Source: Candidatus Saganbacteria bacterium (lineage in GTDB: Bacteria > Margulisbacteria > WOR-1 > XYC2-FULL-46-14 > XYC2-FULL-37-10). Taken from it: DNA of 64,000 bases. Both the position numbers and the translations under genes were made by a program. Shown in pieces: positions 3,385 through 30,938 of the stretch; position 1 is the stretch's first letter; each line of letters begins with the position of its first letter. The notes beneath the pieces were generated by a model that ran no database searches, was not told where the DNA came from, and saw nothing but the letters and a program-made list of their open reading frames with translations. The DNA is taken from NCBI GenBank assembly GCA_016223245.1, contig JACRPL010000021.1, forward strand, positions 37,725-101,724, given 5' to 3'.

Positions 3385-3397
3385 TATTCATAAGTCG

Positions 3398-4255: not shown

Positions 4256-4604
4256 AAAAGGCGCTTTATACCTTTTGCCCTTGGAACAAAAAGAGCTGGC
4301 AGTAAGGCTTGGTCTGCACCCGTCGACCATCTCGCGTGCGATCGCAGGGAAATATGCGCAAACACCTCTAGGTCTCCTGCCTTTGAAATTCTTGTGTCCC
4401 AGGGAATTCAAGGGCAATACCCCCGCCTCGATAAAGGCCAAAATGTCCGATTTGGTTTCAACAGAAGACAAGATGAGCCCTTTGAGCGACGATGACATAA
4501 AAAACACGCTGTTGAGCCTTGGAGTTAGGATCGAACGAAGGACCATTGCCGCTTACCGCAAACAGCTTGGCATTTTGCCTGCATCCGAGAGAATAAAAAA
4601 ATGA
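4218..4604 (+). CDS. rpoN: RNA polymerase sigma-54 factor, C-terminal part (HTH and RpoN box) in the +1 frame
   Basis: QKDFFEKGALYLLPLEQKELAVRLGLHPSTISRAIAGKYAQTPLGLLPLKFL is the sigma-54 DNA-binding HTH. RRTIAAYRKQLGI is RpoN-box-like. This frame is open only from 4209. Confidence 0.8.
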   Translation: MGIIMETQKDFFEKGALYLLPLEQKELAVRLGLHPSTISRAIAGKYAQTPLGLLPLKFLCPREFKGNTPASIKAKMSDLVSTEDKMSPLSDDDIKNTLLSLGVRIERRTIAAYRKQLGILPASERIKK

Positions 4605-7270: not shown

Positions 7271-7273
7271 AAA

Positions 7274-7305
7274 AATGACAAATGTCTAATGACAAATGTC
7301 AAATT
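7274..7305. repeat. Dispersed oligo-repeat, GACAAATGTCAAAT family (intergenic copy)
   Basis: aatgacaaatgtctaatgacaaatgtcaaatt, directly after the ahcY stop. Confidence 0.75.
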
Positions 7306-7323
7306 ATTGAATAAATTATATTA

Positions 7324-9927: not shown

Positions 9928-10027
9928 TTTAAACCTCCAAGGATCCCTATTTTATTATCGCGTCGAAATATGAAAAATTTCAGTTTATTTTATTAAATTG
10001 TGAGATGTATAGGTACATCCAAGCGTA

Positions 10028-13085: not shown

Positions 13086-13952
13086 TTGAAAGTAATCGAT
13101 CTATTTAAGCCAGGCTATCAGACAATATCTTTCGAGTTCTTTCCGCCAAAAACCCTCGAACAAGAAGCAAATCTCTTTAAGGTTTTAGGCGAGCTTAAGA
13201 AATTCGATCCCGATTTTGTATCTGTAACTTATGGCGCAATGGGGACAACACGAGAGAAAACTTTTAAATGGGTAAAAATGATCAAAGAAGAATTTGGCAT
13301 TGAGCCCGTCGTCCACCTGACCTGCATTGCCGCCACAAAAGACTCGATTAAATCCCAGTTGGACGAATTATCCGCTATGGAAGTGTTTAATATCCTTGCT
13401 TTACGCGGTGATCCTCCAGAGGGTGACGATTCTTTTGAGCCGCCAAAGAACGGTTTTAAATATGCAAAAGATCTTGTTTTATTCATTAAAAATCATCACC
13501 CTGAGTTTTGTGTTGGTGTTGCCGGGTTTCCAGAGGGGCATATATCAACAAAAGATCTTACATTGGACATTAAATATCTAAAAGAAAAGATAGAAGCCGG
13601 CGCTCAATATATCGTCACCCAGATGTTTTTCGACAATAGATATTTCTTTGATTTTGTTGAACAATGCAAAAAAGCCGGTATTAATATCCCGATTGTCCCG
13701 GGAATTATGCCGATCACAAATTTAAAACAGGTAAAAAAGATCACAAGCATTTGCGGGGCGACTATTCCTCAAGAAGAATTAAATCAGTTGGAAGAATATG
13801 CGGATGACCAATGCGCCGTTGAAAAATTTGGGATCGATCGCGCGGTAAAGCAATGCAAAGAGCTGCTAGAATCAAAAGCTTGCGGTATTCATTTTTTTGT
13901 TATGAACCAATCAGGACCGATATCGAAAATAATTTCAAATCTTACTCGATAA
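13086..13952 (+). CDS. metF: Methylenetetrahydrofolate reductase
   Basis: ISFEFFPPKT, HLTC, LALRGDPP and the TIM-barrel MetF layout. TTG start. Confidence 0.88.
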   Translation: MKVIDLFKPGYQTISFEFFPPKTLEQEANLFKVLGELKKFDPDFVSVTYGAMGTTREKTFKWVKMIKEEFGIEPVVHLTCIAATKDSIKSQLDELSAMEVFNILALRGDPPEGDDSFEPPKNGFKYAKDLVLFIKNHHPEFCVGVAGFPEGHISTKDLTLDIKYLKEKIEAGAQYIVTQMFFDNRYFFDFVEQCKKAGINIPIVPGIMPITNLKQVKKITSICGATIPQEELNQLEEYADDQCAVEKFGIDRAVKQCKELLESKACGIHFFVMNQSGPISKIISNLTR

Positions 13953-16779
13953 ATTCCCTTAACTCTAAAATATATGGGCGTAATTTATTAAATGCAGCAA
14001 CTTCGATCTGTCTTATTCTTTCTCTTGTTAGACCAAGCATTTGACCGACTTCCTCGAACGTATGGTCGATATTTCCATTCAATCCAAATCTTTGTTCAAG
14101 CACAAATCTTTCTTTGCCCTTGAGCGATGTAACCAGTTCCTTTTTTAATGATTCACTTAACATCCTCTTCATTGTTTCAGCTTCAGGGTTTGGCGACGAT
14201 TGATCCGATACCCCACTTCCGAGTTCAGCATCTCCATCTAATTTGGGCGCATTTAAAGATAAAGTTTGTTGTGTTTGTTTTTTTATTCCTCTTAATTTTG
14301 CAAGAGGAATTTCGAGGTATGCCGCAATTTCCGACTCTTCCGGCTCCCGCTCGAAAGCGATCCGGAGTTCGCATTCCGCGCGATTTATTTTTTTCATGAT
14401 ATCTTGAGTATAGTTTGAAATCCATATCGTACGCCCTTGATTCCCAATTGCACGCAATATTTCTGCTTTGATCCAAATGCATCCATAATGGGCTAAAGTT
14501 CCTTTTTCCGGTTCGTACAATTCAACAGCCCTATATAGGCCAAGAATACCTTCTTGTACGAGGTCGGCAAAATCCAATCCTCTTCCAACATATTTCTTTG
14601 CCATCATGTAAACAAGTCTCATATTTTCGTTAACAGTGGCCCAATTTTTTCTGGAGAGGTCAGCGCTATTATCTACCGGCAGGTGCATTCGTTTTGTTGT
14701 ATTCCAATTTATTGAAGTCATTTCGTCTTCGGGGATCCCAAATTTATCGACCTTCATTCTTTTGAATATGGCCTCGTTCCCCGGAGTAGGGTGGCACAAG
14801 GCCCACCTTGTGAGATAGGATAAGTTCGGGTCGTTAAATAATACCTTTAAGGCCAGAAGCATTCTTTTTCCGGTGAATTTGTCAAAGTCGAGCAAGGAAG
14901 GCAGGAGCCTGAAAGCATTTTGGAAAAGATACGGATCGCTTCCGTAATATCCATGCGCCAATCCCGACAGAACTTCAAGGGCATAAGCAATGCTTGTCGA
15001 GTTGTGTGTTTCTTGATTGAAATACTGGGCAAGCGCCATTAAATTCTGTTCGCTTGTGTTGGACCTTGTTATGTTTTGGACGAGCCATTCATAGTATTCT
15101 TTTCTTTTTTTTAAGTGCGCTTCTCTTGTAAGGTCGGATGATTTTACTTCCATAGCTTTTTTCAATAGTTCAAAATCATAAGGATTCGCTCGATATGCTT
15201 CCGCGTATAATTCAAAAGCCTTATTAAAACCATCTGGATCAAGCAAACTTTTTCCCGCAGAATCAAAATGCACTGCCGCTTGTTTTGCTTTTTCACCCGA
15301 GATAGGCTTATCTACCGTTAGATCTTGTTCACCCGATCTTGCGCGAATGATAAGCTCGCACAATTCCCTTTCATCTCGGCTCATCCTCGCCGCGTCAGTA
15401 AAAAATAGCACTTCTTTCCCATCAAAAGCAAGAAGGGATAACTGCAATGGCTTCATTTCCCATGGGCACCTGTGCGTCACAAACATTAATACATCGCCGA
15501 ATTTGATCTTTTGTACGCTGTTCGCGACACTTGTACTGAATTGTTCGATCAGACGGTATCCGTGCAATTTATCTTTTTCAAGAAATGAGAAAGTAGTGTT
15601 TGCCAGTGTGAATTTTTCCCATGACCATTCCCAATTCAATACGAAAGGCAAAACGGTTCTGTTGTTTTTTTTATCTGTGTGGATAAGTGCGCAAACCTTA
15701 TTTCCAATCGCTTCAACTTCAAGCATAACGCCTGCTTGCAAGCCAAGTTTTTTGGCTATTTCTTCGCCAATTCGGATGACAGGTTTTTTACCGAAGCAGA
15801 TATAGTAGCTAGTTTTTCCCTTTACTGAGTCAGCGCAAACTTTAGTAAATATCTTTTCTTCAGCGTCTTTTAACTTATGTTTTTCTATTTGCTCTCCGCC
15901 AATCAAGATTGTAGTTTTTCCTTCTTTGTCATGTTTCCTTGTAATTGATAAAGGATTTTTACTGCTGTTTTCAGCAAATATCTGGTAGACGGAGCCATCT
16001 TTTATTCTTATCTTGAATACTTCGTTTTCTTTTCTTCGCCTCCCGGCAAAGAAAATCTTTATGCCAAATATTTCCGATGAAAATATCGAATCTTTTTTAT
16101 TTGAAACGACAAAATAATTTGTAATTCCTAGGTTTATAAAATAGAAGAGGAAGTTTTTTAGGTCGAAGTTAAGGTCGCCAATAAAACTATTATCTTTGGC
16201 ATTAAACATGAGCAGAATTATGTCTTCTCCGATTCTTTGCGGGGCAAGGAGAACTTCCGTTTTTTCGCGGATTCCCGTCGGATATGGGATCAGTTTGCCT
16301 TCGTGTTCAAACATAACTATCCCCAATTCGTCGGATTCGGTCCGAAGAAGTCCGGAAAATCCTATGCCAAGTTTTGCTTCATCCATGAAAGTCGTAAAAA
16401 AGTTATTTCGATCAGTTATTTCAGGCCTAGTTTTAAGTATTGCCCCATCATAGCCAAGAGCTACCTCCCAGAAGTTTATTCCTGGTTTTTTCTGTCCAAT
16501 CCCATTTACCGTATCTACAGGGATTCCGTTAACAACGAGAGGGCTCCCGTCGATCCTTAAAAATGCTCCATGGCGGTCAACAGGGATTGCAAGCTTTGCT
16601 TCGCCTGTTTTGTCAATAAACATTAAACCTGAACCAGAAGAAAATGAAACATTGCAGCCACCGCGCGCCAACATTTTGTTTGTCCCATTAGACCTCGAAA
16701 ATGAGAATTTCCAACCATTTACTCTAACTGCGGTTAACTGCGGGCTTGTATGAGGGGCTCTTGATCTTACAAGTTCCAT
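13942..16779 (-). CDS. Giant sigma-70-family protein: ~690-aa uncharacterised N-terminal region fused to sigma regions 2-4
   Basis: Single uninterrupted 945-aa ORF. The C-terminus has region 2 (DLVQEGILGLYRAVELYEPEKG...WIKAEILRAI), region 3, and region 4 HTH (TFEEVGQMLGLTRERIRQIEVAAFNKLR). The N-terminus has no family I recognise. Confidence 0.7.
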   Translation of the reverse strand: MELVRSRAPHTSPQLTAVRVNGWKFSFSRSNGTNKMLARGGCNVSFSSGSGLMFIDKTGEAKLAIPVDRHGAFLRIDGSPLVVNGIPVDTVNGIGQKKPGINFWEVALGYDGAILKTRPEITDRNNFFTTFMDEAKLGIGFSGLLRTESDELGIVMFEHEGKLIPYPTGIREKTEVLLAPQRIGEDIILLMFNAKDNSFIGDLNFDLKNFLFYFINLGITNYFVVSNKKDSIFSSEIFGIKIFFAGRRRKENEVFKIRIKDGSVYQIFAENSSKNPLSITRKHDKEGKTTILIGGEQIEKHKLKDAEEKIFTKVCADSVKGKTSYYICFGKKPVIRIGEEIAKKLGLQAGVMLEVEAIGNKVCALIHTDKKNNRTVLPFVLNWEWSWEKFTLANTTFSFLEKDKLHGYRLIEQFSTSVANSVQKIKFGDVLMFVTHRCPWEMKPLQLSLLAFDGKEVLFFTDAARMSRDERELCELIIRARSGEQDLTVDKPISGEKAKQAAVHFDSAGKSLLDPDGFNKAFELYAEAYRANPYDFELLKKAMEVKSSDLTREAHLKKRKEYYEWLVQNITRSNTSEQNLMALAQYFNQETHNSTSIAYALEVLSGLAHGYYGSDPYLFQNAFRLLPSLLDFDKFTGKRMLLALKVLFNDPNLSYLTRWALCHPTPGNEAIFKRMKVDKFGIPEDEMTSINWNTTKRMHLPVDNSADLSRKNWATVNENMRLVYMMAKKYVGRGLDFADLVQEGILGLYRAVELYEPEKGTLAHYGCIWIKAEILRAIGNQGRTIWISNYTQDIMKKINRAECELRIAFEREPEESEIAAYLEIPLAKLRGIKKQTQQTLSLNAPKLDGDAELGSGVSDQSSPNPEAETMKRMLSESLKKELVTSLKGKERFVLEQRFGLNGNIDHTFEEVGQMLGLTRERIRQIEVAAFNKLRPYILELREFIE

Positions 16780-18188: not shown

Positions 18189-18532
18189 CAGTTAGAGGTT
18201 AAGACTTTTTCTTCTATATGTTTGATTCTTTCTTCATGGTTCTCAAGCTTGACTTCTTGTCGGCGGGATTGAGCATATGACATCTTTTGTTCAATGGACA
18301 GATCTTCAAGTTTTTTCATTATTTTATCTTGGCTTGTGAGGATATCGTTTTTTAATTCTGATTTTAAGCTATTAAGACCGGTTTGAAGTTCCTGTTTTGT
18401 GGCAAATATTGCAGAAAACTTAATAATAATGTTTTCAATGTCTTTTTTTGTGATTACCATATTAAGAATATTATATATATCCAGCTTATTAATTGCAACA
18501 TGAAATTTTAATTCTTCTTTCGCCTGCTGCAA
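18188..18532 (-). CDS. Hypothetical coiled-coil protein
   Basis: 114 aa, heptad-rich (ELQTGLNSLKSELKNDILTSQDKIMKKLEDL). Its TGA shares one base with the tldD ATG. Confidence 0.4.
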   Translation of the reverse strand: MQQAKEELKFHVAINKLDIYNILNMVITKKDIENIIIKFSAIFATKQELQTGLNSLKSELKNDILTSQDKIMKKLEDLSIEQKMSYAQSRRQEVKLENHEERIKHIEEKVLTSN

Positions 18533-18549
18533 TTATCTAGTGTTTTTGA

Positions 18550-18618
18550 CGATATATATGCGGGCCAAAAAGAAAAAGATAATCCATGGGAAAATGGGTT
18601 GATTTTTCAGAGGTCTCA
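18550..18618 (+). promoter_or_regulatory. Conserved leader element, copy X (upstream of the 252-aa orphan gene)
   Basis: cGATATATATGCGGGCCAAAAAGAAAAAGATAATCCATGGGAAAATGGGTTGATTTTTCAGAGGTCTCA. 67 of 68 nt are identical to the reverse complement of 29163-29230. Confidence 0.8.
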
Positions 18619-18634
18619 GTAAGAGATAAACAAA

Positions 18635-19393
18635 TTGATCAATACGAATTTATATATTAAACCCGGGCAGTTAAGACCCTTAGGGCTTGGAAAAGTTGAA
18701 CAGAGAATGGTACTAAATGTTGTAAATGGAATTGGGCGCCTCGAAAGCCGTTTTCTTTTGCTTTTCCATATATTTTATTTCAGCAAGGGCAAAATGGATG
18801 TTTGCCAGCATGCAGCTTTCGCGTTATCGCGAGTGCTTGGAGCAAGATATGATCTTCCGGTGTCCAACACTTTGAAGCCAAATATTGATCATATAGAAAT
18901 AGCAGTCGGGGTATTTGCTCCGCAGGATCTTTCGAGATCCTTTCATCAGACATTTTTAAAAGTGTTTCTTAAAGGCAAGACATTTTACCTCGATCCAACC
19001 CTTAAGTATTTAGAGGAGGATGTCCCATCGATCATTTTGCGCGAATATCCGGCTGGCGAATTCGACAGCCGCCTTCAAAATGAATTCATGATAGAACCGT
19101 ACGCTCCAAACCATCGTGCTTATGCGCACCGTGCCATAATTGCAAGCCAGTACCTTGATCTCGGAAGCCGTGCAAAATACGTTGAGGCATCGTTACGATT
19201 GCTGCATGATCCAAAACTGGTCGTTGATGTTGACCAACGCGAAGCGATATATTTCAGCCAGGATGACTGGACTAGACTTGATAGGATAATAAGAGCTATT
19301 GAACCAAAGGGAGGCCTTCCTTCTATTGAAACACAAGTTGAACAATTATCTGGTGATGAACTTTTGCGCTGGAGTGTATTTGGCGGCATTTAG
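18635..19393 (+). CDS. Hypothetical protein, possible transglutaminase-like/papain-like Cys-His-Asp fold
   Basis: 252 aa. Ordered candidate triad: C in KMDVCQHAAFALSRVLG, H in IDHIEIAVGVF, D in TFYLDPT. Start uncertain (TTG 18635 or ATG 18707). Confidence 0.45.
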   Translation: MINTNLYIKPGQLRPLGLGKVEQRMVLNVVNGIGRLESRFLLLFHIFYFSKGKMDVCQHAAFALSRVLGARYDLPVSNTLKPNIDHIEIAVGVFAPQDLSRSFHQTFLKVFLKGKTFYLDPTLKYLEEDVPSIILREYPAGEFDSRLQNEFMIEPYAPNHRAYAHRAIIASQYLDLGSRAKYVEASLRLLHDPKLVVDVDQREAIYFSQDDWTRLDRIIRAIEPKGGLPSIETQVEQLSGDELLRWSVFGGI

Positions 19394-19399
19394 TCCAGC

Positions 19400-22180
19400 T
19401 CACTTCGCTTCCGCCCAGTTCTCCCCAACTCCAATATCAATTTTTAGAGGGACAGAAAGCTTTAAGGCATTCTGCATTTCATCTTGGATGATCTTTTTAA
19501 CTTTATCGACTTCAGAATTCGGGACTTCGAAGACCAATTCGTCGTGGACCTGCAGGATCATTTGACATTTGACACTTGACATTTGACATTTGCGATGGAT
19601 ATTTACCATCGCTAACTTTATCATATCGGCTGCGGTTCCTTGGACTGGAGTATTTATAGCCGTTCTCTCGGCAAAACCTCTCATTCCTTGATTGGGAGAA
19701 TTAATATCGGGTAGGGGGCGTTTTCGCCCAAGCATCGTTGTTACAAATCCTGTATCTTTAGCATCTTTAATAGTTTTTTCTATAAAAGCCTTTATGCCGG
19801 GATATCTTTTGAAATATTTTTCAATAAATTGCTCGGCTTCCGTTCTTTTGATCTTTAAACTTTTAGCCAAGCCAAAACCGGATATCCCGTAAATGATCCC
19901 AAAATTAACTGTTTTAGCGCTTGATCTCATTTCTTTTGTAACTTTATCAAGAGGTACATTGAAGATATCGGCAGCCGTTGCAGTATGGATATCTTCATCC
20001 AATTTGAAAGCCTCAATAAATTTTTCATCTTGTGAAAGATGCGCGAGAACCCTTAATTCAATTTGAGAATAATCGGCCGCAATTATCTTATATCCTTTAT
20101 TTTGCGGGACAAATGCTTCTCTTACTCTTTTTCCAAGTTCGGATTTTACGGGAATATTCTGCATATTTGGATTTGAGCTCGATAACCTGCCTGTCGCAGT
20201 GATCGTTTGGTTGAAATTTGCATGAACGCGTCCGGTTTCTTTATTTATTAGTTCCGGCAAAGTATCAACGTAGGTTGATTTGAGTTTGTTCAATCCTCGA
20301 TATTCCAGAAGTTTTTCAGCGATCTCAAATTGGCCGGACAATTCTTCCAATACTTCCGCATCTGTTGAAGCGCCTGTTTTTGTTTTCTTAATTATGGGCA
20401 GCTTTAGTTTCTCAAATAAAACTACAGCCAATTGCTTTGGAGAGTTCAAATTGAAAACTTCTCCGCATATGGCAAAGATGTGCCGCTCAAGATCTTTCAT
20501 TGCAAGTTCGATCTCTTGGCTAAGTTTCTTTAAGTATTTGGCATCGATGAAAACACCTGTCTCTTCCATTTTGATCAACACATCAAGCAATGGCATCTCA
20601 ATTTTGTTAAAGACATCCTCCATATTTTCCGACTTGAGAGTTTTCTCAAAGACTTCTTTTAACCCGCGAGTCACATCGGCATCCGAACATGCGTAATCTT
20701 TCGCGACATCTATCGGAACTGTTGCGAAGTTGCCTTCAGACCCAAGTTCATCGAAGTTTATCATTTCTGTTCGGCCAAGATACTGCGCGCCGACTTTCTT
20801 TAAACTATACCTGCCGATAGTCGGGTCGATCAAATATGCGGCTACCATGGTGTCGAAATAGGGTGACGATACTTCAATATCGTATTTTTTCATCACCTCG
20901 ACGTCGTACTTTAAATTATGTCCGATCTTGAGCTTGGTTTTATCTTCAAAAATCGGTTTTAGCGCAGTTAATGCCATTTTAATATTAACTTGCGGCTGAA
21001 CGCCGCGGTTAATGCTTTTGGAACCGCGAGCCGTGCCTACCGGCAGGCAGGGTTCACTCGCAGGTTCCACCTTGTGCCCAAAAGGCAAATAAAAAGCTTC
21101 GCTTTCGTCAATTGAAAAAGATATACCTATAAGATTTGCTTTGAAAGTATTGAGGCTGTCTGTCTCGGTATCAAAGGCAAAAGACTCGCATTCTTTTAAT
21201 TTATGGATTAGGTTTTGATAATGATTATCATTATCAATTAGCTTGAAGTTGAATTTCGAAATTTCTTTCCTTTTTGTCTCAACCTTGTCGAATAGATTGG
21301 GGGTTTGATGCTCCTTGTATTTGTTTATCAGAGTCTTGAATTCCATTCGTTCGAAGAATTTAATGACTTTTTCCCAGTCCGGGGTTTGAGTTGATGTGAA
21401 ATCGGTTTCGAGTGGTACGTCAGTTATAATCGTTACCAGCATTTTGCTCAAATGCGCTTTTTCTTGTTCGTTCAATAATGTTTCGCGAAGCTTTGGCTTT
21501 TCGATATCTTTGGCATGAGCTAATAAATTATCAAGTGTATGATATTTTTTTAATAGTTCAGCGGCTGTTTTATCTCCGATCCCGGGCATTCCCGGGACAT
21601 TGTCAGATGTATCGCCTTTTAAAGCTTTAAAATCAATTAATTGGTTTGGTTTGAGGCCATATCTTTCCTCAACTGCTTTTTCGTCATAGATAACTATGTC
21701 GGAGATCCCTTTCCTGGTAGTCATTACTTTTATTTTCTCTGTTACAAGCTGTAATGCGTCGCTGTCGCCTGTTACTATTTCTACTTCAAAGCCTTCTTTT
21801 TCTGCCTTCTTGGCCAAAGTTCCTATGAGATCGTCGGCTTCAAAGCCTACTAATTCATAGATCGGGATATTTAGGTCTTCGACCAGTTCTTTTATATACG
21901 GAAATTGAGGATGGAGGGTGGGAGGCGCTTTATCTCTTGTTCCCTTGTATTCTTTGTATTTTATATGGCGGAAGGTCGGTTCTTTCCTGTCGAAAGCGAC
22001 TGCAATATAATCCGGTTTTTCCTCGACAAGCTTTAGGATCATCGAAGTGAAGCCATATATGGCATTAGTTACTATGCCTTCGGAGTTCTTCATGGTGTCT
22101 GGAAGCGCATAAAAAGCGCGGTAGGCAAGCGAGTTGCCGTCGATCAGGATTGCTTTAGGGTTGTATAAAGATTTGACCAA
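19400..22180 (-). CDS. polA: DNA polymerase I
   Basis: 926 aa with 5'-nuclease (ILIDGNSLAYRAFYA), 3'-5' exonuclease and polymerase domains (RRSAKTVNFGIIYG-type motif B, QVHDELVFE motif C). The TTG start abuts the HEPN stop. Confidence 0.95.
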   Translation of the reverse strand: MVKSLYNPKAILIDGNSLAYRAFYALPDTMKNSEGIVTNAIYGFTSMILKLVEEKPDYIAVAFDRKEPTFRHIKYKEYKGTRDKAPPTLHPQFPYIKELVEDLNIPIYELVGFEADDLIGTLAKKAEKEGFEVEIVTGDSDALQLVTEKIKVMTTRKGISDIVIYDEKAVEERYGLKPNQLIDFKALKGDTSDNVPGMPGIGDKTAAELLKKYHTLDNLLAHAKDIEKPKLRETLLNEQEKAHLSKMLVTIITDVPLETDFTSTQTPDWEKVIKFFERMEFKTLINKYKEHQTPNLFDKVETKRKEISKFNFKLIDNDNHYQNLIHKLKECESFAFDTETDSLNTFKANLIGISFSIDESEAFYLPFGHKVEPASEPCLPVGTARGSKSINRGVQPQVNIKMALTALKPIFEDKTKLKIGHNLKYDVEVMKKYDIEVSSPYFDTMVAAYLIDPTIGRYSLKKVGAQYLGRTEMINFDELGSEGNFATVPIDVAKDYACSDADVTRGLKEVFEKTLKSENMEDVFNKIEMPLLDVLIKMEETGVFIDAKYLKKLSQEIELAMKDLERHIFAICGEVFNLNSPKQLAVVLFEKLKLPIIKKTKTGASTDAEVLEELSGQFEIAEKLLEYRGLNKLKSTYVDTLPELINKETGRVHANFNQTITATGRLSSSNPNMQNIPVKSELGKRVREAFVPQNKGYKIIAADYSQIELRVLAHLSQDEKFIEAFKLDEDIHTATAADIFNVPLDKVTKEMRSSAKTVNFGIIYGISGFGLAKSLKIKRTEAEQFIEKYFKRYPGIKAFIEKTIKDAKDTGFVTTMLGRKRPLPDINSPNQGMRGFAERTAINTPVQGTAADMIKLAMVNIHRKCQMSSVKCQMILQVHDELVFEVPNSEVDKVKKIIQDEMQNALKLSVPLKIDIGVGENWAEAK
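19559..19592. repeat. Dispersed oligo-repeat, GACAAATGTCAAAT family, in frame inside polA
   Basis: catttgacatttgacacttgacatttgacatttg encodes (minus strand) KCQMSSVKCQM, directly before the conserved ILQVHDELVFE motif. Confidence 0.8.
21020..21068. repeat. CCTGCC/GGCAGG-type palindromic element in frame inside polA
   Basis: ggaaccgcgag-ccg-tgcct-accggc-aggca-gggttca-ctcgc-a-ggttcc, three nested stems. Encodes VEPASEPCLPVGTARGSKS between the exonuclease motifs. Confidence 0.7.
22095..22159. repeat. 65-bp direct repeat, copy 1 (codons 2-23 of the original polA, now in the live gene)
   Basis: 60 of 65 nt are identical to 23100-23164. Confidence 0.9.
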
Positions 22181-22582
22181 TTATAAAAACTCTTTAATTC
22201 GTTTTTTTAATAACAGGGCTAATTTCTTTGTTGTCTTAATAACTTTTTTTAATTCTTCCGAGGTAATGTCTTCTCCTGGATACCTAAAACCAACGGCATA
22301 GGGATTTAATATCTTGAATTCAGAATATATTCCATACAAAAATGGGTCTTTTGGCTGGAGCAGTTTTAATAATTCAATTAGGTCATGTGTTTTAGGGAAT
22401 AATATCTCATGGCTGAGAAGTAATGTTTTTAGGTATTTTTCGATTGCTTGCTGGCAATGGAAAGCAATGATATAGAATGTTTTCTTTTTGCTTTTGTTTT
22501 TATTTAATGTTAACGCGGCTTCTAAGTCTCCCTCAGCCTTATCCTCCCACTCAATAACCAAGGATTTACTTGGATGAATCAT
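22181..22582 (-). CDS. HEPN-domain toxin (HepT-like) of an MNT/HEPN module
   Basis: 133 aa all-helical protein with QQAIEKYLK, KTHDL and RYPG motifs typical of HEPN. Overlaps the MNT gene by 17 nt. Confidence 0.75.
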   Translation of the reverse strand: MIHPSKSLVIEWEDKAEGDLEAALTLNKNKSKKKTFYIIAFHCQQAIEKYLKTLLLSHEILFPKTHDLIELLKLLQPKDPFLYGIYSEFKILNPYAVGFRYPGEDITSEELKKVIKTTKKLALLLKKRIKEFL

Positions 22583-22931
22583 ATAAGACTTTGCCCTTAT
22601 TTATTATTTCATGATAAAAAGGATCTCCCATTTTAAGTCGTTTTTTTACTTCACTAGGAGTTTTGATTAAGATGTCCATTGGAAAAAGATGCTCGATGTG
22701 TCGAGTTGCCCATGAATAACGCTTCATACCTTTCAACCTTGTATCTTTTATGAACAATAAATCAACATCGCTATCTTTGTTGGGATTTCCATAAGCATAT
22801 GATCCAAAAAGAATAACCTTTTCCGGTTTTATACTCTCCGCCGCAGTTTTAATTACTTTTGTTAGCTGCCGCTTAAAAAGTCGTTGCTTTGTCATAGTTG
22901 TTTGCCTTGTGAATATTATAGCATGAAACAT
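22566..22931 (-). CDS. Minimal nucleotidyltransferase antitoxin (MntA-like)
   Basis: GSYAYGNPNKDSDVDLLF is the classic GSx10DxD MNT motif. The likely true start is Met13 (22895), downstream of a TGcTATAAT box. Confidence 0.8.
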   Translation of the reverse strand: MFHAIIFTRQTTMTKQRLFKRQLTKVIKTAAESIKPEKVILFGSYAYGNPNKDSDVDLLFIKDTRLKGMKRYSWATRHIEHLFPMDILIKTPSEVKKRLKMGDPFYHEIINKGKVLYDSSK

Positions 22932-23025: not shown

Positions 23026-23151
23026 ATGTCAGAAATTTTAGGTTCCAGTTTTCACAAACCTGATCCGAGGAAATCGGCCAACTTTAAAGAGACTGCTGTG
23101 TGTCTGGAAGCGCGTAAAAAGCGAGATAGGCAAGCGAGTTGCCGTCGATAA
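23026..23151 (+). CDS. Small ORF (41 aa) with a consensus Shine-Dalgarno, antisense to the polA fossil
   Basis: AGGAGGTG lies 7 nt before the ATG. Encodes MSEILGSSFHKPDPRKSANFKETAVCLEARKKRDRQASCRR. Hand-translated. Coding status uncertain. Confidence 0.25.
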   Translation: MSEILGSSFHKPDPRKSANFKETAVCLEARKKRDRQASCRR

Positions 23152-23167
23152 GAATTGCTTTAGGCAT
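23084..23167 (-). pseudogene. polA: Fossil 5' end of polA (27 codons then stop), left behind by the cassette insertion
   Basis: Minus strand ATG CCT AAA GCA ATT... gives MPKAILIDGNSLAYLAFYALPDTQQSL*. Located 25 nt downstream of the tsf stop. Confidence 0.7.
23100..23164. repeat. 65-bp direct repeat, copy 2 (in the fossil polA start)
   Basis: Five differences from 22095-22159. Four are synonymous in the polA frame. Confidence 0.9.
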
Positions 23168-24665: not shown

Positions 24666-24911
24666 TGCTTCCTCCTTAAATTATTAGGTCTATAGTTTTT
24701 CAAGCAGACAAACAATAATTTTATCACAGAATTGGCTTTTTTGCCAATGAAATTTGGACGGGATTGGACGATAATAACATAGAGAGCTCCGAAAAATTTG
24801 CAAGATAAAAAATATAGCAATTAATATGGTTGTTTTTTAAATCTGCCTGCCTTGGCTCGATCTTATAGCGTTCTCCTTTCATCACGATTTCATATTCCTC
24901 AAACCTGCGCT

Positions 24912-24929
24912 CGGCAGGATATCCTGCCG
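24912..24929. repeat. Perfect 18-nt palindrome of the CCTGCC/GGCAGG family (intergenic)
   Basis: cggcaggatatcctgccg, with ctgcctgcc also at 24843-24851. Confidence 0.7.
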
Positions 24930-25229
24930 GGCAAAAAAGGATTGATCATTTTGCCGACAATCTTTTTTTTCCTCATTTTTTTGTTTTTTCCCTTCTTCGT
25001 CAAAATACTCATCTTTCCTTTCTTCCAATATCCTGTCCAGGCTACCAGACAATAAGGAAAGGTTCCATCAGTCGCTTGATAACAAAACTCCTTGGCAGGT
25101 TTACTGCGGAGGGATCGTTGAAGGCTATGAAGTCCAGCCTTTAATGAGTGAGGTTTTCTATCTTAATTGTAGCAAGGAATTGGTCTTGACAAACCCGACC
25201 ACTTCACTTGGGGCATTAAAAAGGTAGGA

Positions 25230-25832
25230 TTATTTAACTAAAGCCATTCTGGACCAAAATGCAACGGCTCGCGCATATGCTTTAAGATCAATTGGCACAG
25301 GATTCGCAACTCCTCCAAAGTCTATTCCCAAACCATTTCTTAAAATCGTAATCGGCAGCATCGGTTCTTCTTTGCAGCCTGTAATGCCATTAATTGAAAT
25401 GATTCCCCAATTGGAATCAGCTGGATCAATTGCCTCGCCTTCAGTTTTAAGTTCTTCACTTGTATAAAGAATGATATCTAAATACGGCGCCTTGGGAGGG
25501 ACAACATCAGCTGAATCGAACCATCTTGTAAGTACTGGAAGCTCTTCCGTCTTGCGCGCAACATAACCCGTTTTAATAAATTTTTCATTGGCAGCCGTTA
25601 TTTCAACGACCCCGGCTCTTGCATCCGTAAAGTTCTCAAGAAATAAATGCGCGCAAAAAGAGACATAACCTGGCGTTAGCGATTTTCCTTGAGCCAATTG
25701 GTTCGCTTTATTCGTAAAAGCATTAGAATCTATATTACCAATTTTTGTTCCAGGAAATTCCGGGTTAAAATGCCTTCCTGCAGCAAACTGGGTCATTCCA
25801 ATTTTTATCATATTTCCAGCGGCAACATCCAT
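25230..25832 (-). CDS. Hypothetical 200-aa protein (DUF3228-like, from memory), translationally coupled to the 1091-aa gene
   Basis: ATG lies 2 nt after the upstream stop, with AGGAGG embedded in the upstream gene's 3' end. No catalytic motif recognised. Confidence 0.5.
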   Translation of the reverse strand: MDVAAGNMIKIGMTQFAAGRHFNPEFPGTKIGNIDSNAFTNKANQLAQGKSLTPGYVSFCAHLFLENFTDARAGVVEITAANEKFIKTGYVARKTEELPVLTRWFDSADVVPPKAPYLDIILYTSEELKTEGEAIDPADSNWGIISINGITGCKEEPMLPITILRNGLGIDFGGVANPVPIDLKAYARAVAFWSRMALVK

Positions 25833-25834
25833 TT

Positions 25835-28800
25835 TTATCTCCTCCTTGATAATTGCGACAACAAGTATGTTCCCATTTGTTCTTTTGCCCTAAGGATCCT
25901 AGGGTTCGTCCCTAGTTCTGCATCAGCCAACGTTTCCCCTTCTTTCCCTGGGATATCCGAAAAATAACCCATCATTGAAACTGACAAAGATGGCTTAGCG
26001 CCAAGACCTCTAACAAGCGGCCCCATTTCAAGTTCAACAGAAGTTGCCTTTCTTCCCATAAGGTCCGCAAGAAAAGCATCATGTTCTTGTAAAGGAGAAT
26101 CTACATAGCCCGCATGTGTTGTCAGGACAAATCTTATGGCACTATCTCCTGCTTTACTATCTGTGCCTCCAGCCAAATCAACAACTTCTTGCCTTTGAGC
26201 TAAAGCATAGGAAACAACATCATTGACAAAGCCATTAGCCTCTCCTTTTTCTTCAAGCATCGTACTTGGGACAAATAGATCCCCGACATTTATTTCTGTT
26301 TGATTTTGGCCCGCTCCGGCGATAAAACCGCCATTTCCAAAAAACGTCACATTTTCGACATTCTCTTCGGCAACTGCTTGCCCTAAATAACCTGATAAGC
26401 TCCCAAAAGGAATTGTTACCATAAGGAATGGCGCTTTCCCCGGCAATCTTATTAAACTTGCCTGGTAAACATCATTAGGCACGCGGGCTTTCATGCTTTC
26501 CGGTTTCAACTTCTCTGGCAATATAAAAGGAGGGTTTCTATTCATCCCAAGCTTCGCATAAACGCCTTCAAGCTTGTCTCTAAGCGCCAATAGCCTTGCA
26601 GCAAGGTTAGGATTAAGCATTATTTCTTCAGGATCTAGTGAAAAAGCCGCCGTCAAATTCGTTTTATCATCAAAAATTTGTCCAATGATTTTTGGCGTAA
26701 GCACTCTGATCTCAGCTTGAATATTTGGGATAGCTTGTTCTATCTCTTCATTTTGAGCAGTTTCATAGCTTTCAATTAAAATAATACCAAATTCCGCAAG
26801 AAGTTTTAAGCATTGTTTTATTCTCTTAATAAATACATTTTTCATCTCTTGCGCCGGTATTTTTGGATTGTTTTTTGTAAACGAGCCATAATCAAGGTTT
26901 GCCGCCAATTCCTCCAATTTCATATTAACTGCTCGGCTTAGATCTGCCTCAACTTCATTAAGCAATTCTTCGCCTTTCAACCCTGGTTTAAGGAAAGCAG
27001 CTAATACTCTTGCGGCATTTATCCTCTCTGCTAAAATATAGCTTATCGTTCCCCCTGGACCAACAACTACCATTTTTGGGAATTTGCCATTGTTTTTGCT
27101 TTTGGTTGCGGCAATCAAATTTTTGGCGTCCACCATATAATCTTCAGAATAGACATGATGGTATATTTTTTCAACGGATAATCCCGCATAAGTTAGATAC
27201 AGCCTCATATGCATCAATTTTGTTTCGCCAAGAATATTAACAACAATAAATTGATTAGTCCCTTTTACCCTATACCAATGCTGCTTAACGCCGTCTTCTG
27301 TTCTTTCTACCGCAAGCCGCTCCAATTGTGAACGTTTATCGGTGATATATTGCATGCTTGTAGAAAGCGGGCCATGATGCAATTCAATTGAAACAAATTT
27401 ACCTTCATCCAATAGGTCCAATGCGGCTTTTGGGATTCTGGGGATAAGATATTCAGGCAAATTCAATGAATGCCTGCGATACATTGCGACCCCTTGGCGC
27501 ACGTTTTCGATAACAGGCATTCTGCCGATAGCAGATACAATATCGTCAATTGAAAGCGATGTTTTTCTTTGTTCTGCCGGAAGCTCTTTTGGGAACATAG
27601 GAGATCCTCCCGCCTTTGAAAATCCGCCCCAACCCTTTCGCAGCTCCGAAAAGCCCAGTGTTGCTCTCTTTTTCTTTTCCTCTTGGCCTAACTTTTCCCA
27701 TAAATTTGTAAGGTCTATCTCGACTTCAAGCGAAGAATTCGGGTCGATCCCGACCATATATTCATATCCCATATTGCATTCAGCGTCATATGAGATGGCA
27801 AGATGTATCTGGTCCTTCGCGGCCCTTTTTCGGTTATACCCTTCCATGAACGCATATATCCCCCTGCGACTGACAACTTTTTTCCATTCAACATCCCCTC
27901 TCCAAGGATGTTTCACAATAATGGTATTTCCTCGAATTTCAACGCTTGTGTTGTTTGAATCATTTATCGCTTGAGCTAAATATTCGACTTCTCTTTCCAA
28001 TACTTCCCGCGCTCCTCTGTAAATCGCCAAATAACCATTAGGGAGGGTCGCTTCATGTTCTAGGCTATCAAGTATGCGGCAAAGATCTGAAAATACATTA
28101 TCTCTTAACACGGGGAATGCGGCTGCGCAACTTGTATGATAATCTTTGATCTCGAGGAATTTACCCCTTTCCAAAGAATACATTTCTTCAAGCAATAGCA
28201 TAAGTTTTCCGCCATCGGAACGGACGGATCCTTTCTGAAGATCAGATAGGTCCGAAGCTTCTAGTAATATTTTTTTCTGCCCTTCGCTTAAATAAAGCGC
28301 CAATCCAGGATTACATAACAGCCACTGTTCAATAAACGCATAACAATCGGAATAAACTTTAATTTTTCGGCCGTTTAAGGATTCCCTTTGAAGTGTTTCA
28401 AGTTTTTCGGTTGCTTCCATTATTTCTTTTGTTTGCGTAGTATCTTTATGCGGCAGGAAAAGGAAATCCTTTAATTCTGCCAATCGCTTCTGAATTGTTT
28501 CTCCGTTCATCCCGCGATTCTTTAATATAGCAGCAACCGGTTCACCAATATTTTTATCAAAATCAATATTATATCGTAAGGTAACCATAGACATTAATAT
28601 CCCTTGTTCAAGATTATCCGCAATTATTGGGACTAATTTATCAATATCGCTTGTGTCTACAAATAAAGCTTCTGGTTTTGAGTCAATGATCGTGCGCTGT
28701 CCGGCAAGAGATTGAGAAGGTTGGCTAACAGCCATTGCGCATGCAGCAGGGTTCGAAACGCCTGAAAGATCCAATGAATATACTGCTCCACAGAAAAATA

Positions 28801-29110
28801 CATCAATATTATTTCGCCCAAAATCCCTGCGATCGACCAAAACGACTGCAGTTTTCGATCTGCCGATTCTCATTGTTACAAGGCTAAGGTTTCGCAATTC
28901 TAATTCTTGAGGCGATAAATTTCCTTGTAATATGCTAGCGCGAAGATCTGTTTCAAGTGCAACAGTTGCTAATGCAGCTTCGCTAAAAGCATGTTTTTTT
29001 AATGCCAGCAAAGCACTTGCGCTATGCATTAAGGGAGCCAAATGTGATTTTTGCATTAGGGCTAAAGGGGTCAATTTTTGTGCGGTTGGGCCAACTACTT
29101 GAATATTCAC
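25835..29110 (-). CDS. 1091-aa orphan protein with a nucleoside phosphorylase/nucleosidase-like C-terminal domain
   Basis: Uninterrupted ORF with GGAGG 9 nt before the GTG start. The last ~250 aa show PNP/UDP/MTAN-like motif order (FLMVTIPFG, FFGNGGFIAG, VGDLFVPS, SVELEMGP, GYFSDIP). The rest is unassigned. Confidence 0.6.
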   Translation of the reverse strand: MNIQVVGPTAQKLTPLALMQKSHLAPLMHSASALLALKKHAFSEAALATVALETDLRASILQGNLSPQELELRNLSLVTMRIGRSKTAVVLVDRRDFGRNNIDVFFCGAVYSLDLSGVSNPAACAMAVSQPSQSLAGQRTIIDSKPEALFVDTSDIDKLVPIIADNLEQGILMSMVTLRYNIDFDKNIGEPVAAILKNRGMNGETIQKRLAELKDFLFLPHKDTTQTKEIMEATEKLETLQRESLNGRKIKVYSDCYAFIEQWLLCNPGLALYLSEGQKKILLEASDLSDLQKGSVRSDGGKLMLLLEEMYSLERGKFLEIKDYHTSCAAAFPVLRDNVFSDLCRILDSLEHEATLPNGYLAIYRGAREVLEREVEYLAQAINDSNNTSVEIRGNTIIVKHPWRGDVEWKKVVSRRGIYAFMEGYNRKRAAKDQIHLAISYDAECNMGYEYMVGIDPNSSLEVEIDLTNLWEKLGQEEKKKRATLGFSELRKGWGGFSKAGGSPMFPKELPAEQRKTSLSIDDIVSAIGRMPVIENVRQGVAMYRRHSLNLPEYLIPRIPKAALDLLDEGKFVSIELHHGPLSTSMQYITDKRSQLERLAVERTEDGVKQHWYRVKGTNQFIVVNILGETKLMHMRLYLTYAGLSVEKIYHHVYSEDYMVDAKNLIAATKSKNNGKFPKMVVVGPGGTISYILAERINAARVLAAFLKPGLKGEELLNEVEADLSRAVNMKLEELAANLDYGSFTKNNPKIPAQEMKNVFIKRIKQCLKLLAEFGIILIESYETAQNEEIEQAIPNIQAEIRVLTPKIIGQIFDDKTNLTAAFSLDPEEIMLNPNLAARLLALRDKLEGVYAKLGMNRNPPFILPEKLKPESMKARVPNDVYQASLIRLPGKAPFLMVTIPFGSLSGYLGQAVAEENVENVTFFGNGGFIAGAGQNQTEINVGDLFVPSTMLEEKGEANGFVNDVVSYALAQRQEVVDLAGGTDSKAGDSAIRFVLTTHAGYVDSPLQEHDAFLADLMGRKATSVELEMGPLVRGLGAKPSLSVSMMGYFSDIPGKEGETLADAELGTNPRILRAKEQMGTYLLSQLSRRR

Positions 29111-29162: not shown

Positions 29163-29231
29163 TGAGACCTCTGAAAAATCAACCCATTTTCCCATGGATT
29201 ATCTTTTTCTCTTTGGCCCGCATATATATCG
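29163..29231 (-). promoter_or_regulatory. Conserved leader element, copy Y (upstream of the 1091-aa gene)
   Basis: The reverse complement matches 18551-18618 at 67 of 68 nt. Weaker similarity continues about 15 nt further toward the gene. Confidence 0.8.
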
Positions 29232-29263
29232 ACAGCCCCCACCGAAGATTTCACTATGGAACA

Positions 29264-29297
29264 AACTATTTCCCAACTATTTTCCCAACTATTTCAA
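29264..29297. repeat. Three tandem 11-12-nt direct repeats (AACTATTT(T)CCC)
   Basis: aactatttccc aactattttccc aactatttcaa. They straddle the stop of the ARH gene, upstream of leader copy Y. A related ccaaccaactatttt occurs at 30875-30889. Confidence 0.65.
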
Positions 29298-30878
29298 ATG
29301 GATACGAGATAATTGATCTGCATAAGCGCTGATTTCTCTGTGTTCAATAAGCCCTTCGATCCATTCATTTGGTATTACTGTTAATCCATTATGTGCTGCG
29401 CTTATTGCTCCAGCTAATCCTGCAATGCTATCGGAATCTCCTTGCGTATTGACCCCGGCAATAATTGTTCTTCTAAAATCCGGTAAGCTTTTCAAAAAGC
29501 AATAAATTGCCGATGGAACCACTCCAAGCGCTTTCATTCCAGTTTTGACTTTTTTCCCATCAATGTTGCTTGGGATTTGGTTTAAACCATCTTCTGTAGA
29601 TACTTGCATCAATGACGGCAATCTTCTTATTTCAAATGCCATTTTTGGACTTTCATTTTCTATATATTGCGCCGTTCTTTCAACAATTCCCTCTACTGAA
29701 TCCGGAAGCCGGCTTAAACGACCTTGATTAATAAGATATGCGATCGCCAAAGCGCCGCCGAGCGCTTCCTTGCCTGTTTTTGTGATCAATGTTACAGCTC
29801 CTACGCTTTTTCTTAGCAATGCAAGGTCATCAATAATTAAGCCCAAGGGCACAACTGCGGTTGCCGGCCCACAGCCGTCGCTTTGGTTTGCCGCTAACCG
29901 CCAATTTAGCCCCGCATATAACCTTCTATAAGATGTAAGAGTACTATTAGAATAACCGACATTCCTGGTCAAGCCCATGTCAAGCTTTAAACCAAAAGCC
30001 GCAAAAATTCCGGCCATGTCGTTTGGATCGATCTTTCCAGTGCGAATGATCGACTTGGCAACCATAAGGGCCATTTGGGTATCATCCGTATAATCGCCGG
30101 GAAATAATGGGCGCACAGGATCTTTCAAAAAACCGTCTACATATCCTATCCGTCTGATTTCTTCAAGCGATGAAAATTCTACTGGCGCTCCCATCGCATC
30201 GCCTATTGCTTCGCCAAATAAAACAGCTCGATGAATATCGAAAGAAGTTGGACTCGACAATTCGACATTCACCTGCGCTTTTGGATAAAGAAAAGAAAAG
30301 GACGTTTCTCTTATCGACAAAGCGGCATCCTCTTCAAACTCCTTTATTAAATTCAAATCACCGAATCTGCCCAACATGTGTACCGCAAGATTCTTTATTG
30401 CTTCAGGGCCTTGAAGTCCTGTTTTTATTAAGGGTACGATTCCGGAAACAATTCTTTGCATTTGCATTATTGAAGCAAGCATCCAGTTTTCGGATTTTTG
30501 CGTTCGCAGCAATCTCCCGAGTTCAGCAATATATTTATGGGGATCAGACGCTCCCAAGGAAAGGGCGGAAAACCAGCGGACTTGGCCATCGGGATCTTGA
30601 AGCATTGTTTTCAATGTTGCGGCCGCTTGTTCCTGCTCAACCCAAGCCATCATTTTTTTTGATGTTTCCCTTCGGACTCTTGAGCTTGGATCAGAGCTCA
30701 AAGGTAATATTGCCGCAAGATCTTGTGCCGCTCGAATAGAAGAAAGCTTCGCCTCAATAATAGGATTAGCTCTATAATAAGTTCTTAGCATTGCGCTTTT
30801 TGCGCAAGATGCATATATTTGCATGTGTTTGGCCTCACATATATATCGGCCCCCCTCATCGAAAATTTCATTTTCCAA
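29289..30878 (-). CDS. HEAT-repeat / ADP-ribosylglycohydrolase fusion protein
   Basis: N-terminal HEAT-like repeats (DPSSRVRRE, DPDGQVRWFSALSLG). ARH domain motifs GDAMGAPVEF, DYTDDTQMAL, GDSDSIAGLAGAISAA. The real start is probably ATG 30824 (GAGG Shine-Dalgarno) rather than TTG 30878. Confidence 0.8.
   Translation of the reverse strand: MENEIFDEGGRYICEAKHMQIYASCAKSAMLRTYYRANPIIEAKLSSIRAAQDLAAILPLSSDPSSRVRRETSKKMMAWVEQEQAAATLKTMLQDPDGQVRWFSALSLGASDPHKYIAELGRLLRTQKSENWMLASIMQMQRIVSGIVPLIKTGLQGPEAIKNLAVHMLGRFGDLNLIKEFEEDAALSIRETSFSFLYPKAQVNVELSSPTSFDIHRAVLFGEAIGDAMGAPVEFSSLEEIRRIGYVDGFLKDPVRPLFPGDYTDDTQMALMVAKSIIRTGKIDPNDMAGIFAAFGLKLDMGLTRNVGYSNSTLTSYRRLYAGLNWRLAANQSDGCGPATAVVPLGLIIDDLALLRKSVGAVTLITKTGKEALGGALAIAYLINQGRLSRLPDSVEGIVERTAQYIENESPKMAFEIRRLPSLMQVSTEDGLNQIPSNIDGKKVKTGMKALGVVPSAIYCFLKSLPDFRRTIIAGVNTQGDSDSIAGLAGAISAAHNGLTVIPNEWIEGLIEHREISAYADQLSRIHLK
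30828..30864 (-). promoter_or_regulatory. Partial third copy (Z) of the leader 5' module, at the 5' end of the ARH gene
   Basis: Minus strand tttcgatgaggggggcCGATATATATGTGAGGCCAAA aligns with copy Y tcttcggtgggggctgtCGATATATATGCGGGCCAAA. Confidence 0.6.
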
Positions 30879-30938
30879 CCAACTATTTTGGAAAATATAA
30901 GTGTTGACTCTTTAACCTTCCCCGCCTAAAATCAAATC

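Follow-up and report, generated by a model that had tools for sequence, protein, structure and literature searches.

The locus and the two repeat copies

The window, that is, the whole 64-kb stretch of DNA that was analysed, contains two near-identical short sequences in inverted orientation, here called copies X and Y. Both lie in sense orientation upstream of an open reading frame, X before a 252-aa ORF (TTG at 18635) and Y before a 1091-aa ORF (GTG at 29110), as the initial annotation had described. Across the 10.5 kb that separates them, the genes are, in sequence, the 252-aa gene, polA, a HEPN/nucleotidyltransferase pair, tsf and rpsB, then a DUF3228 gene and, last, the 1091-aa gene. The best-named homologues belong to MAGs of Candidatus Saganbacteria or WOR-1. 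The main features are as follows.

18547 to 18618, plus strand: repeat copy X, 72 nt, with a core (18550-18618) identical to Y at 68 of 69 positions
18635 to 19393, plus strand: conserved hypothetical gene of 252 aa behind X (homologues P0003-P0009)
25230 to 25832, minus strand: DUF3228 gene, separated by 2 nt from the 1091-aa gene upstream
25835 to 29110, minus strand: 1091-aa gene behind Y, with a 5′ UTR of ~108 nt and the Shine-Dalgarno (SD) sequence GGAGG
29163 to 29234, minus strand: repeat copy Y, with the −10 element, the predicted +1 and the hairpin inside
29289 to 30824, minus strand: HEAT and ADP-ribosylglycohydrolase gene (529 aa), probable start ATG at 30824, conserved upstream partner of the 1091-aa gene

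The core of copy X at 18550-18618 (plus strand) was aligned with the reverse complement of 29163-29231. The core sequence is CGATATATATGCGGGCCAAA[A/G]AGAAAAAGATAATCCATGGGAAAATGGGTTGATTTTTCAGAGGTCTCA, read from 18550 to 18618 on the plus strand and from 29231 to 29163 on the minus strand, and its single mismatch is A at 18570 in X against G at 29211 in Y. None of 100 shuffles gave a comparable match, and the 67/68 identity first reported for this leader is borne out. A repeat search stretched the arms to 72 nt (18547-18618 and 29163-29234; 70/72, 97%). The edges of the repeat are sharp and the flanks are unrelated. In gapped local alignments of ~100 nt of flank, the score of the downstream pair was reached by 1106 of 2000 shuffles and that of the upstream pair by 175 of 2000, in agreement with the earlier statement that similarity ends right after the element. 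The faint likeness that had been seen between the N-termini of the two proteins was not upheld by BLASTP (best E 3.3).

X and Y are the sole copies in the window when up to 3 mismatches are allowed. A covariance model run over the window with filters off scored them at 91 bits, and the next match at 14 bits. Covariance-model searching, which the initial annotation had proposed, was extended with a model of the hairpin to the window and nine related loci and again matched X and Y only. Exact 18- or 20-nt probes gave 7 matches in the GTDB representative genomes, JGI metagenomes and IMG/VR, all with unrelated flanks and attributable to chance; these scans find exact matches only, and diverged copies would escape them. 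Rfam covariance models at gathering thresholds matched neither copy; at E values up to 10, X gave noise and Y gave no match. With just two copies in the window and matches in the collections that are due to chance, the element does not show the pattern of a common dispersed repeat. In an independent Logan assembly (run SRR12113407), contigs L001 and L012 each open with the final 29 nt of the element, GAAAATGGGTTGATTTTTCAGAGGTCTCA, and run on into the two different downstream genes, which backs the 3′ junctions of both X and Y. The repeat is thus genuine and not an assembly artefact; we infer that the contig ends reflect the breaking of a k-mer graph at a true repeat.

The two downstream genes had been regarded as orphans, which they are not. 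The 252-aa protein has 7 homologues on Saganbacteria/WOR-1-type contigs (a family of 8), and an exhaustive representative search found 4 homologues of the 1091-aa protein, which also has a conserved partner gene. The AlphaFold (AF2) model of the 252-aa protein had a pLDDT of 87.5 and a pTM of 0.86, and residues Cys57, Asp85, Glu88, His104, Asp120 and His160 are invariant in its family. A PDB structure search with the model returned nothing significant; the best match had an E of 0.25, and vasohibin- and SseI-type Cys proteases were matched faintly. An assignment of function from structure was therefore rejected, confident as the model is. The 1091-aa family is without a Pfam domain, and one of its members is fused to DUF6687, which in locus L022 is a separate neighbouring gene. 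The DUF3228 gene is probably cotranscribed with the 1091-aa gene. A gene pair in which a HEAT/ADP-ribosylglycohydrolase gene precedes one for a protein of 1100-1500 aa that lacks known domains is found here and also at L022 4318-9498 and L024 2460-8446.

Loci L006 and L015 have the same gene order and orientation: TldD, the 252-aa gene, polA, then tsf and rpsB. Therefore, the inverted copies bound no mobile or inverted segment, and a transposon or invertible segment delimited by the 72-nt repeats was rejected. A recently acquired island was likewise rejected, given the uniform base composition and the presence of the ADP-ribosylglycohydrolase/giant-gene pair, with promoters of the class described below, in other genomes.

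Other features of the window were recorded. A 65-nt direct repeat (92% identical; 22095-22159 and 23100-23164) accompanies a cassette at 22181-22931 on the minus strand, and a remnant of the polA 5′ end (MPKAILIDGNSLAYLAFYALPDTQQSL*, 23166-23083, minus strand) lies upstream of the nucleotidyltransferase/HEPN pair. This sequence arrangement suggests that the pair was inserted at the polA start, duplicating its first ~23 codons. The same cassette lies between polA and tsf in L015. A dispersed repeat of ~35-53 nt, built of TGACAAATG-like units, occurs at 7273-7307, 19538-19591 and 47264-47316; one copy is in polA (encoding ...KCQMSSVKCQM...), another in a Mur ligase gene, and the third is intergenic. 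The 560 nt that separate rpsB from the DUF3228 gene (24666-25229) lack a long ORF; they include an SD-preceded, Lys-rich ORF of 37 codons (25012-24899, minus strand) and a perfect palindrome, CGGCAGGATATCCTGCCG (~24929-24912), whose arms are 8 bp long. The sigma-54 gene is split into overlapping ORFs at 3209-4255 (activator-interacting and core-binding) and 4218-4604 (DNA-binding domain), followed by an NtrC-type activator gene at 4601-5977. The split could result from a frameshift or a sequencing error, or mark a pseudogene.

The promoter motif and the predicted start site

The initial annotation treated the repeat as one cis-regulatory element. A sense-oriented element before two genes is indeed present, and its sequence divides it in two: the first ~13 nt form a predicted −10 element that belongs to a conserved class of alternative promoters, and the remainder would be 5′ UTR. 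What had been called the CGATATATATG box proves to be the −10 element within a bipartite promoter of the form GAAAT(Y)T-N13-CGATAW. The sites in the window are as follows.

18528 to 18533, plus strand: −35-like box TGCAAT of the X promoter (class consensus TGAAAT), outside the repeat; TGAAAY-N16-CGATA with 1 mismatch, PWM 19.3 bits
18548 to 18559, plus strand: −10 element GACGATAT of the X promoter with ATAT extension (the CGATATATATG box), hexamer and spacing as in the orthologues
29248 to 29253, minus strand: −35 box TGAAAT of the Y promoter, outside the repeat and correctly spaced; PWM 23.7 bits
29233 to 29226, minus strand: −10 element GTCGATAT of the Y promoter, within copy Y
30839 to 30870, minus strand: promoter of the HEAT/ADP-ribosylglycohydrolase (529-aa) gene, TGAAATTTT-N11-GCCGATAT; PWM 28.1 bits
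16782 to 16813, minus strand: class promoter directly before the ATG of a 945-aa sigma-70-family gene, a leaderless arrangement
9951 to 9982, minus strand: class promoter before a 95-aa, membrane-protein-like gene, found by PWM and motif match

The motif GAAATTTY-N13-CGATAW is located, with invariant spacing, upstream of all seven 252-aa orthologues that have upstream sequence (L006, L015, L016/L017, L018, L019 and L021); the 253-aa gene of L019 has GGATAT in place of the CGATAW hexamer. A PWM was trained on these orthologue promoters only and applied with a cut-off of at least 18 bits. It gave 5 matches in the window, compared with 1 in 30 shuffles, and all five are sense-oriented and lie 3-112 nt upstream of an ORF start or first ATG. 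They precede the 252-aa gene (X), the 1091-aa and DUF3228 genes (Y), the HEAT/ADP-ribosylglycohydrolase gene, the 945-aa sigma-70-family gene and the 95-aa gene. The CGATAW core is present at 5 of 5 window sites and at 12 of 13 sites in related loci. The −35 boxes of X (TGCAAT) and Y (TGAAAT) and the spacers differ, and both boxes are outside the repeat. The 529-aa gene promoter has CGATATATATGnG(n)GGCCAAA in common with X and Y, without the hairpin. In L006 the motif is also found before a phosphofructokinase gene and before a 250-aa gene, and in L019 before an HD-domain gene. The leader behind class promoters ranges from ~0 to ~108 nt. Outside the window, class-promoter sites were recorded at L006 10278-10303 and 11101-11126 (both minus strand), L019 1459-1484, L022 3349-3374 and 5922-5948, and L024 1253-1278.

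The rpsB gene and a divergent 114-aa gene have TTGCAA/TATAAT-type boxes, and therefore GAAATTTY-N13-CGATAW represents an alternative promoter class. The published sigma-28/FliA consensus of E. coli is TAAAGTTT-n11-GCCGATAA (PMC2859248), and the sigma-28 −10 element spans −15 to −8 (PMC12784957). The −35 box GAAATTTY agrees with TAAAGTTT at 6 of 8 positions, and the n11/N13 spacing is invariant. In its boxes and spacing, the class is sigma-28/FliA-like, and a sigma factor of that type may read it. It resembles sigma-28/FliA/SigD/WhiG promoters in the bipartite motif, the spacing and the CGATA(A/T) −10 core. The sigma-D promoter of Bacillus subtilis is TAAA-N15-GCCGATAT, and the promoter of the 529-aa gene also reads GCCGATAT. 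The class differs from the sigma-28 consensus in having G for T at the first −35 position and an AT-rich extension after the −10 element. Sigma-28 regulons consist of late flagellar, chemotaxis or developmental genes, whereas the genes behind this class encode phosphofructokinase and an HD protein, an ADP-ribosylglycohydrolase and a sigma factor, besides several large proteins; many members of the class are apparently leaderless. A Pfam search of the downstream genes and most window ORFs found no flagellar or chemotaxis domains, and no flagellar gene was present in the fetched loci. A FliA-family sigma gene was found neither in the window nor in the fetched related loci.

The 945-aa sigma-70-family protein is a candidate cognate sigma factor of the class, though it is RpoD-like by score (RpoD_Cterm 185 bits, FliA_WhiG 84 bits). 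It is encoded at 13942-16779 on the minus strand. Its ~700 N-terminal residues match no Pfam domain, and regions 2, 3 and 4 lie behind them at 716-934; its RpoD-like match falls below all curated cut-offs. Because a class promoter precedes this gene in a leaderless arrangement, the gene may be autoregulated. It is missing from the syntenic position in L006 and L015.

The 9-mer AATAGTTGG occurs exactly three times in the window, always on the minus strand (29273-29281, 29285-29293 and 30879-30887), compared with ~0.5 expected by our own estimate. The sequence immediately upstream of the Y promoter has two of the copies and a degenerate third, and that immediately upstream of the 529-aa promoter has one. 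Judged by position and sequence, these copies could be a shared upstream binding site.

In three genes (the 945-aa sigma gene, the L006 phosphofructokinase gene and the L019 HD gene), the called ATG is located exactly 6 nt past CGATAW. This fixes the likely start site and implies that several members of the class have leaderless mRNAs. From the consensus geometry and this leaderless spacing, the start is predicted at the seventh or eighth nucleotide past the hexamer, which is G18562/3 in X and 29219/8 in Y. The prediction bears on a short ORF that had been noted at the ATG of the box.

18558 to 18602, plus strand: 14-codon ORF, judged not to be expressed from the X promoter

This ORF is present, and its ATG (18558-18560) begins 2 nt past the CGATAT hexamer, at −5 to −3 of the predicted start. 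With a start at G18562/3, the ATG would fall outside the transcript. A leader peptide is therefore unlikely: the ATG precedes the predicted start, an SD is absent, and the only X/Y difference is non-synonymous within the ORF (Lys to Glu). The Lys-rich 37-aa ORF at 25012-24899 (minus strand) was considered as a relative of the 14-codon ORF and rejected; the DNA alignment score of 18 was lower than every shuffled-control maximum (23-36), and the likeness was put down to low-complexity chance.

The leader hairpin

Folding of the leader, also proposed in the initial annotation, gave a stable hairpin on the sense strand; it showed no covariation, as expected for two copies that are one base apart.

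18562 to 18616, plus strand: X leader hairpin from the predicted +1 (G18562/3), computed fold, −15.8 kcal/mol
18562-18566 with 18612-18616, plus strand: helix P1 of X, GG(G)CC/GGUC(U)
18572-18577 with 18603-18608, plus strand: helix P2 of X, GAAAAA/UUUUUC
18580-18587 with 18594-18601, plus strand: helix P3 of X, UAAUCCAU/AUGGGUUG
18588-18593, plus strand: apical loop GGGAAA of X, from the fold
29219 to 29165, minus strand: Y hairpin, predicted +1 at 29219/8, loop at 29193-29188

The ~55 nt from the predicted +1 form three stacked helices that would open at the first transcribed base. The small hairpin AUCCAU-GGGAAA-AUGGGU of the initial annotation is present as the tip of this longer stem-loop. 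In X, the hairpin has a z of −2.8 and accounts for 76% of the ensemble; in Y, it accounts for 57%. For the antisense strand the value is no better than −5.4 kcal/mol (z +0.8), as several of the sense pairs are G-U. These values favour a structure at the RNA level, in the sense strand, over a palindrome in the DNA. Within a longer context of 101-141 nt, the fold is unremarkable (z −1.1 to −1.3). The lone X/Y difference is placed in an internal loop. Past the closing helix, the repeat continues for only 2 nt.

The orthologous leaders showed no detectable conservation of the X/Y hairpin sequence (p 0.1-0.44). Shared stretches (AUGGGAAA, GGUUGAUUU and CCAAAA..AAAAGA) were considered as signs of similarity and rejected at these p values. 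The orthologous leader of L015 opens with a stable hairpin (z −3.5) that has a different stem and a loop beginning with GGGAAA. Since the leader sequence similarities are not significant, the likeness of this hairpin to that of X and Y is suggestive only. The leaders of the remaining orthologues are short or absent.

Stem-loops at the 5′ end stabilise mRNAs such as those with the ompA 5′ UTR of E. coli and the aprE and ermC leaders of B. subtilis. With the predicted start, the X/Y stem-loop would resemble these in opening at or within 1 nt of the 5′ end, upstream of the ribosome-binding site. Another arrangement to compare is the CsrA-bound leader of the sigma-D-dependent flagellin mRNA (hag) of B. 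subtilis, in which a sigma-D-type promoter is followed by a 5′ hairpin with GGA in its loop. CsrA/RsmA-regulated leaders are marked by GGA motifs, both in a hairpin loop and over the SD. X and Y each have the loop GGGAAA; GGAGGA occurs at the SD of Y, and the SD region of X (AAGAGA) has no GGA. The loop context matches the CsrA consensus at GGA only, and no csrA or fliW gene was seen.

Probable origin and proposed role of the shared leader

The 1091-aa homologues of L022 (42% identity) and L024 (35%) lie directly downstream of a HEAT/ADP-ribosylglycohydrolase gene, which in L022 is 46% identical to the 529-aa gene of the window. In L022, a class promoter (5922-5948) is embedded in the 3′ end of the HEAT/ADP-ribosylglycohydrolase gene, ~50 nt upstream of the large gene, and the L024 operon with both genes opens with a class promoter. 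Together with the motif before the 252-aa orthologues and the −35 box of Y outside the repeat, these arrangements show that class promoters are ancestral at both the X locus and the Y locus. With ancestral promoters at both loci, and only −16 to +56 shared between X and Y, the identity is best explained by recent copying or gene conversion, which we consider most likely, and not by proven selection. The initial annotation had taken conserved non-coding sequence beside diverged coding sequence as a sign of selection. That contrast does not demonstrate selection, because the flanks were never homologous, and a neutral copying event of ~70 bp accounts for the identity equally well. An older and larger duplication with decayed flanks was rejected; neither the flanks nor the 252-aa and 1091-aa proteins are similar.

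We believe that each copy is a promoter-proximal module, consisting of a sigma-28-like −10 element, a start site and a 5′ hairpin, which was recently copied or converted between two members of one regulon and acts post-transcriptionally; we give this reading a probability of about 0.6. The module would comprise the −10 element (NNCGATAT and ATAT), a start ~7 nt downstream and the first ~55 nt of the mRNA. One leader would recently have been copied or converted onto the other, with the shared −10 consensus as the seed of homology, so that two members of one regulon would bear the same 5′ end. After transcription, the hairpin would most likely guard the 5′ end from decay, present its loop to an RNA-binding regulator, or both.

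The hairpin may also be a neutral passenger of a recent duplication, because its sequence has no detectable conservation in orthologous leaders. In this account, template switching or gene conversion copied ~70 bp of one promoter region and the hairpin has no function. A 68/69 identity beside unrelated flanks requires no selection, and the orthologous leaders without the hairpin, together with the range of class leader lengths, agree with it. Yet the edges of the repeat coincide with functional ones, as it runs from the −10 element through the closing helix; in addition, the fold is strongly specific to one strand and makes up most of the ensemble, and a 5′ hairpin occupies the corresponding position in L015. 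We regard the purely neutral account as possible and clearly less probable than the module described above.

A bolder proposal is that the 5′-terminal hairpin with the GGGAAA loop is a new cis-regulatory RNA motif, recognised by a dedicated post-transcriptional regulator of a non-flagellar sigma-28-like Saganbacteria regulon with concerted evolution preserving its identity at the two loci; the L015 hairpin, with its different stem and like loop start, would be a second, covarying instance. This is speculative, and we hold it to be slightly less likely still than the neutral account.

Short repeats that carry promoters or hairpins, such as Correia/NEMIS, REP/BIME and ERIC, are well known in intergenic regions. 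X and Y are like them in being short, sharp-edged, near-identical, hairpin-forming and placed in 5′ UTRs. A non-autonomous mobile or REP/MITE-like palindrome of ~50 nt (~+8 to +56) could have been inserted independently downstream of two class promoters, the shared −10 element and GGCCAAA then being class consensus. As such an insertion would predict, the unit is imperfectly palindromic and sharply bounded, and the 529-aa promoter has CGATATATATGnG(n)GGCCAAA without a hairpin. However, the filters-off covariance model finds just the two copies in 64 kb, exact-probe scans of the GTDB representative genomes, JGI metagenomes and IMG/VR gave no true match, and the copies have neither a target-site duplication nor terminal inverted repeats apart from the stem. 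In these respects X and Y also differ from the Correia/NEMIS, REP/BIME and ERIC families, and we consider such an insertion improbable.

Two further explanations are very unlikely. In an attenuator, the Lys-rich 14-codon ORF would be translated, and the position of the ribosome would set the AAUCCAU/AUGGGUU hairpin and a U5 terminator; the stop codon UGA does adjoin the 3′ arm, and the hairpin with GAUUUUUC is like a weak intrinsic terminator, but the position of the ATG relative to the predicted start, the missing SD and the Lys to Glu difference speak against translation, the stem has 2 G-C pairs, a terminator scan was negative and an alternative antiterminator pairing is not evident. A double-stranded DNA operator, in which a dimeric repressor bound to the imperfect palindrome AATCCAT-N6-ATGGGTT (+19 to +38) would block both promoters, matches the 7-bp inverted repeat with a 6-bp spacer that X and Y share, but G-U wobble pairs make the symmetry good only in the sense RNA (−15.8 vs. 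−5.4 kcal/mol), the outer helices P1 and P2 are left without a role, and the other three class promoters in the window have no such site.

Overall, the X/Y element is largely of an ordinary type, a duplicated alternative-sigma promoter with a leader hairpin, and not a new kind of element. The host lineage is uncultivated and is sister to the Cyanobacteria. For such a lineage, a previously unexplained repeat becomes usable annotation, in the form of a promoter class and a rule for predicted start sites. The promoter matrix and the covariance model are directly applicable to whole genomes of Saganbacteria or Margulisbacteria. The sites outline a small conserved regulon, which would comprise the 252-aa family, the module of ADP-ribosylglycohydrolase and giant protein, and the 945-aa sigma factor with a class promoter of its own. 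Within it, X and Y are an example of two members of a regulon coming to share an identical 5′ UTR.
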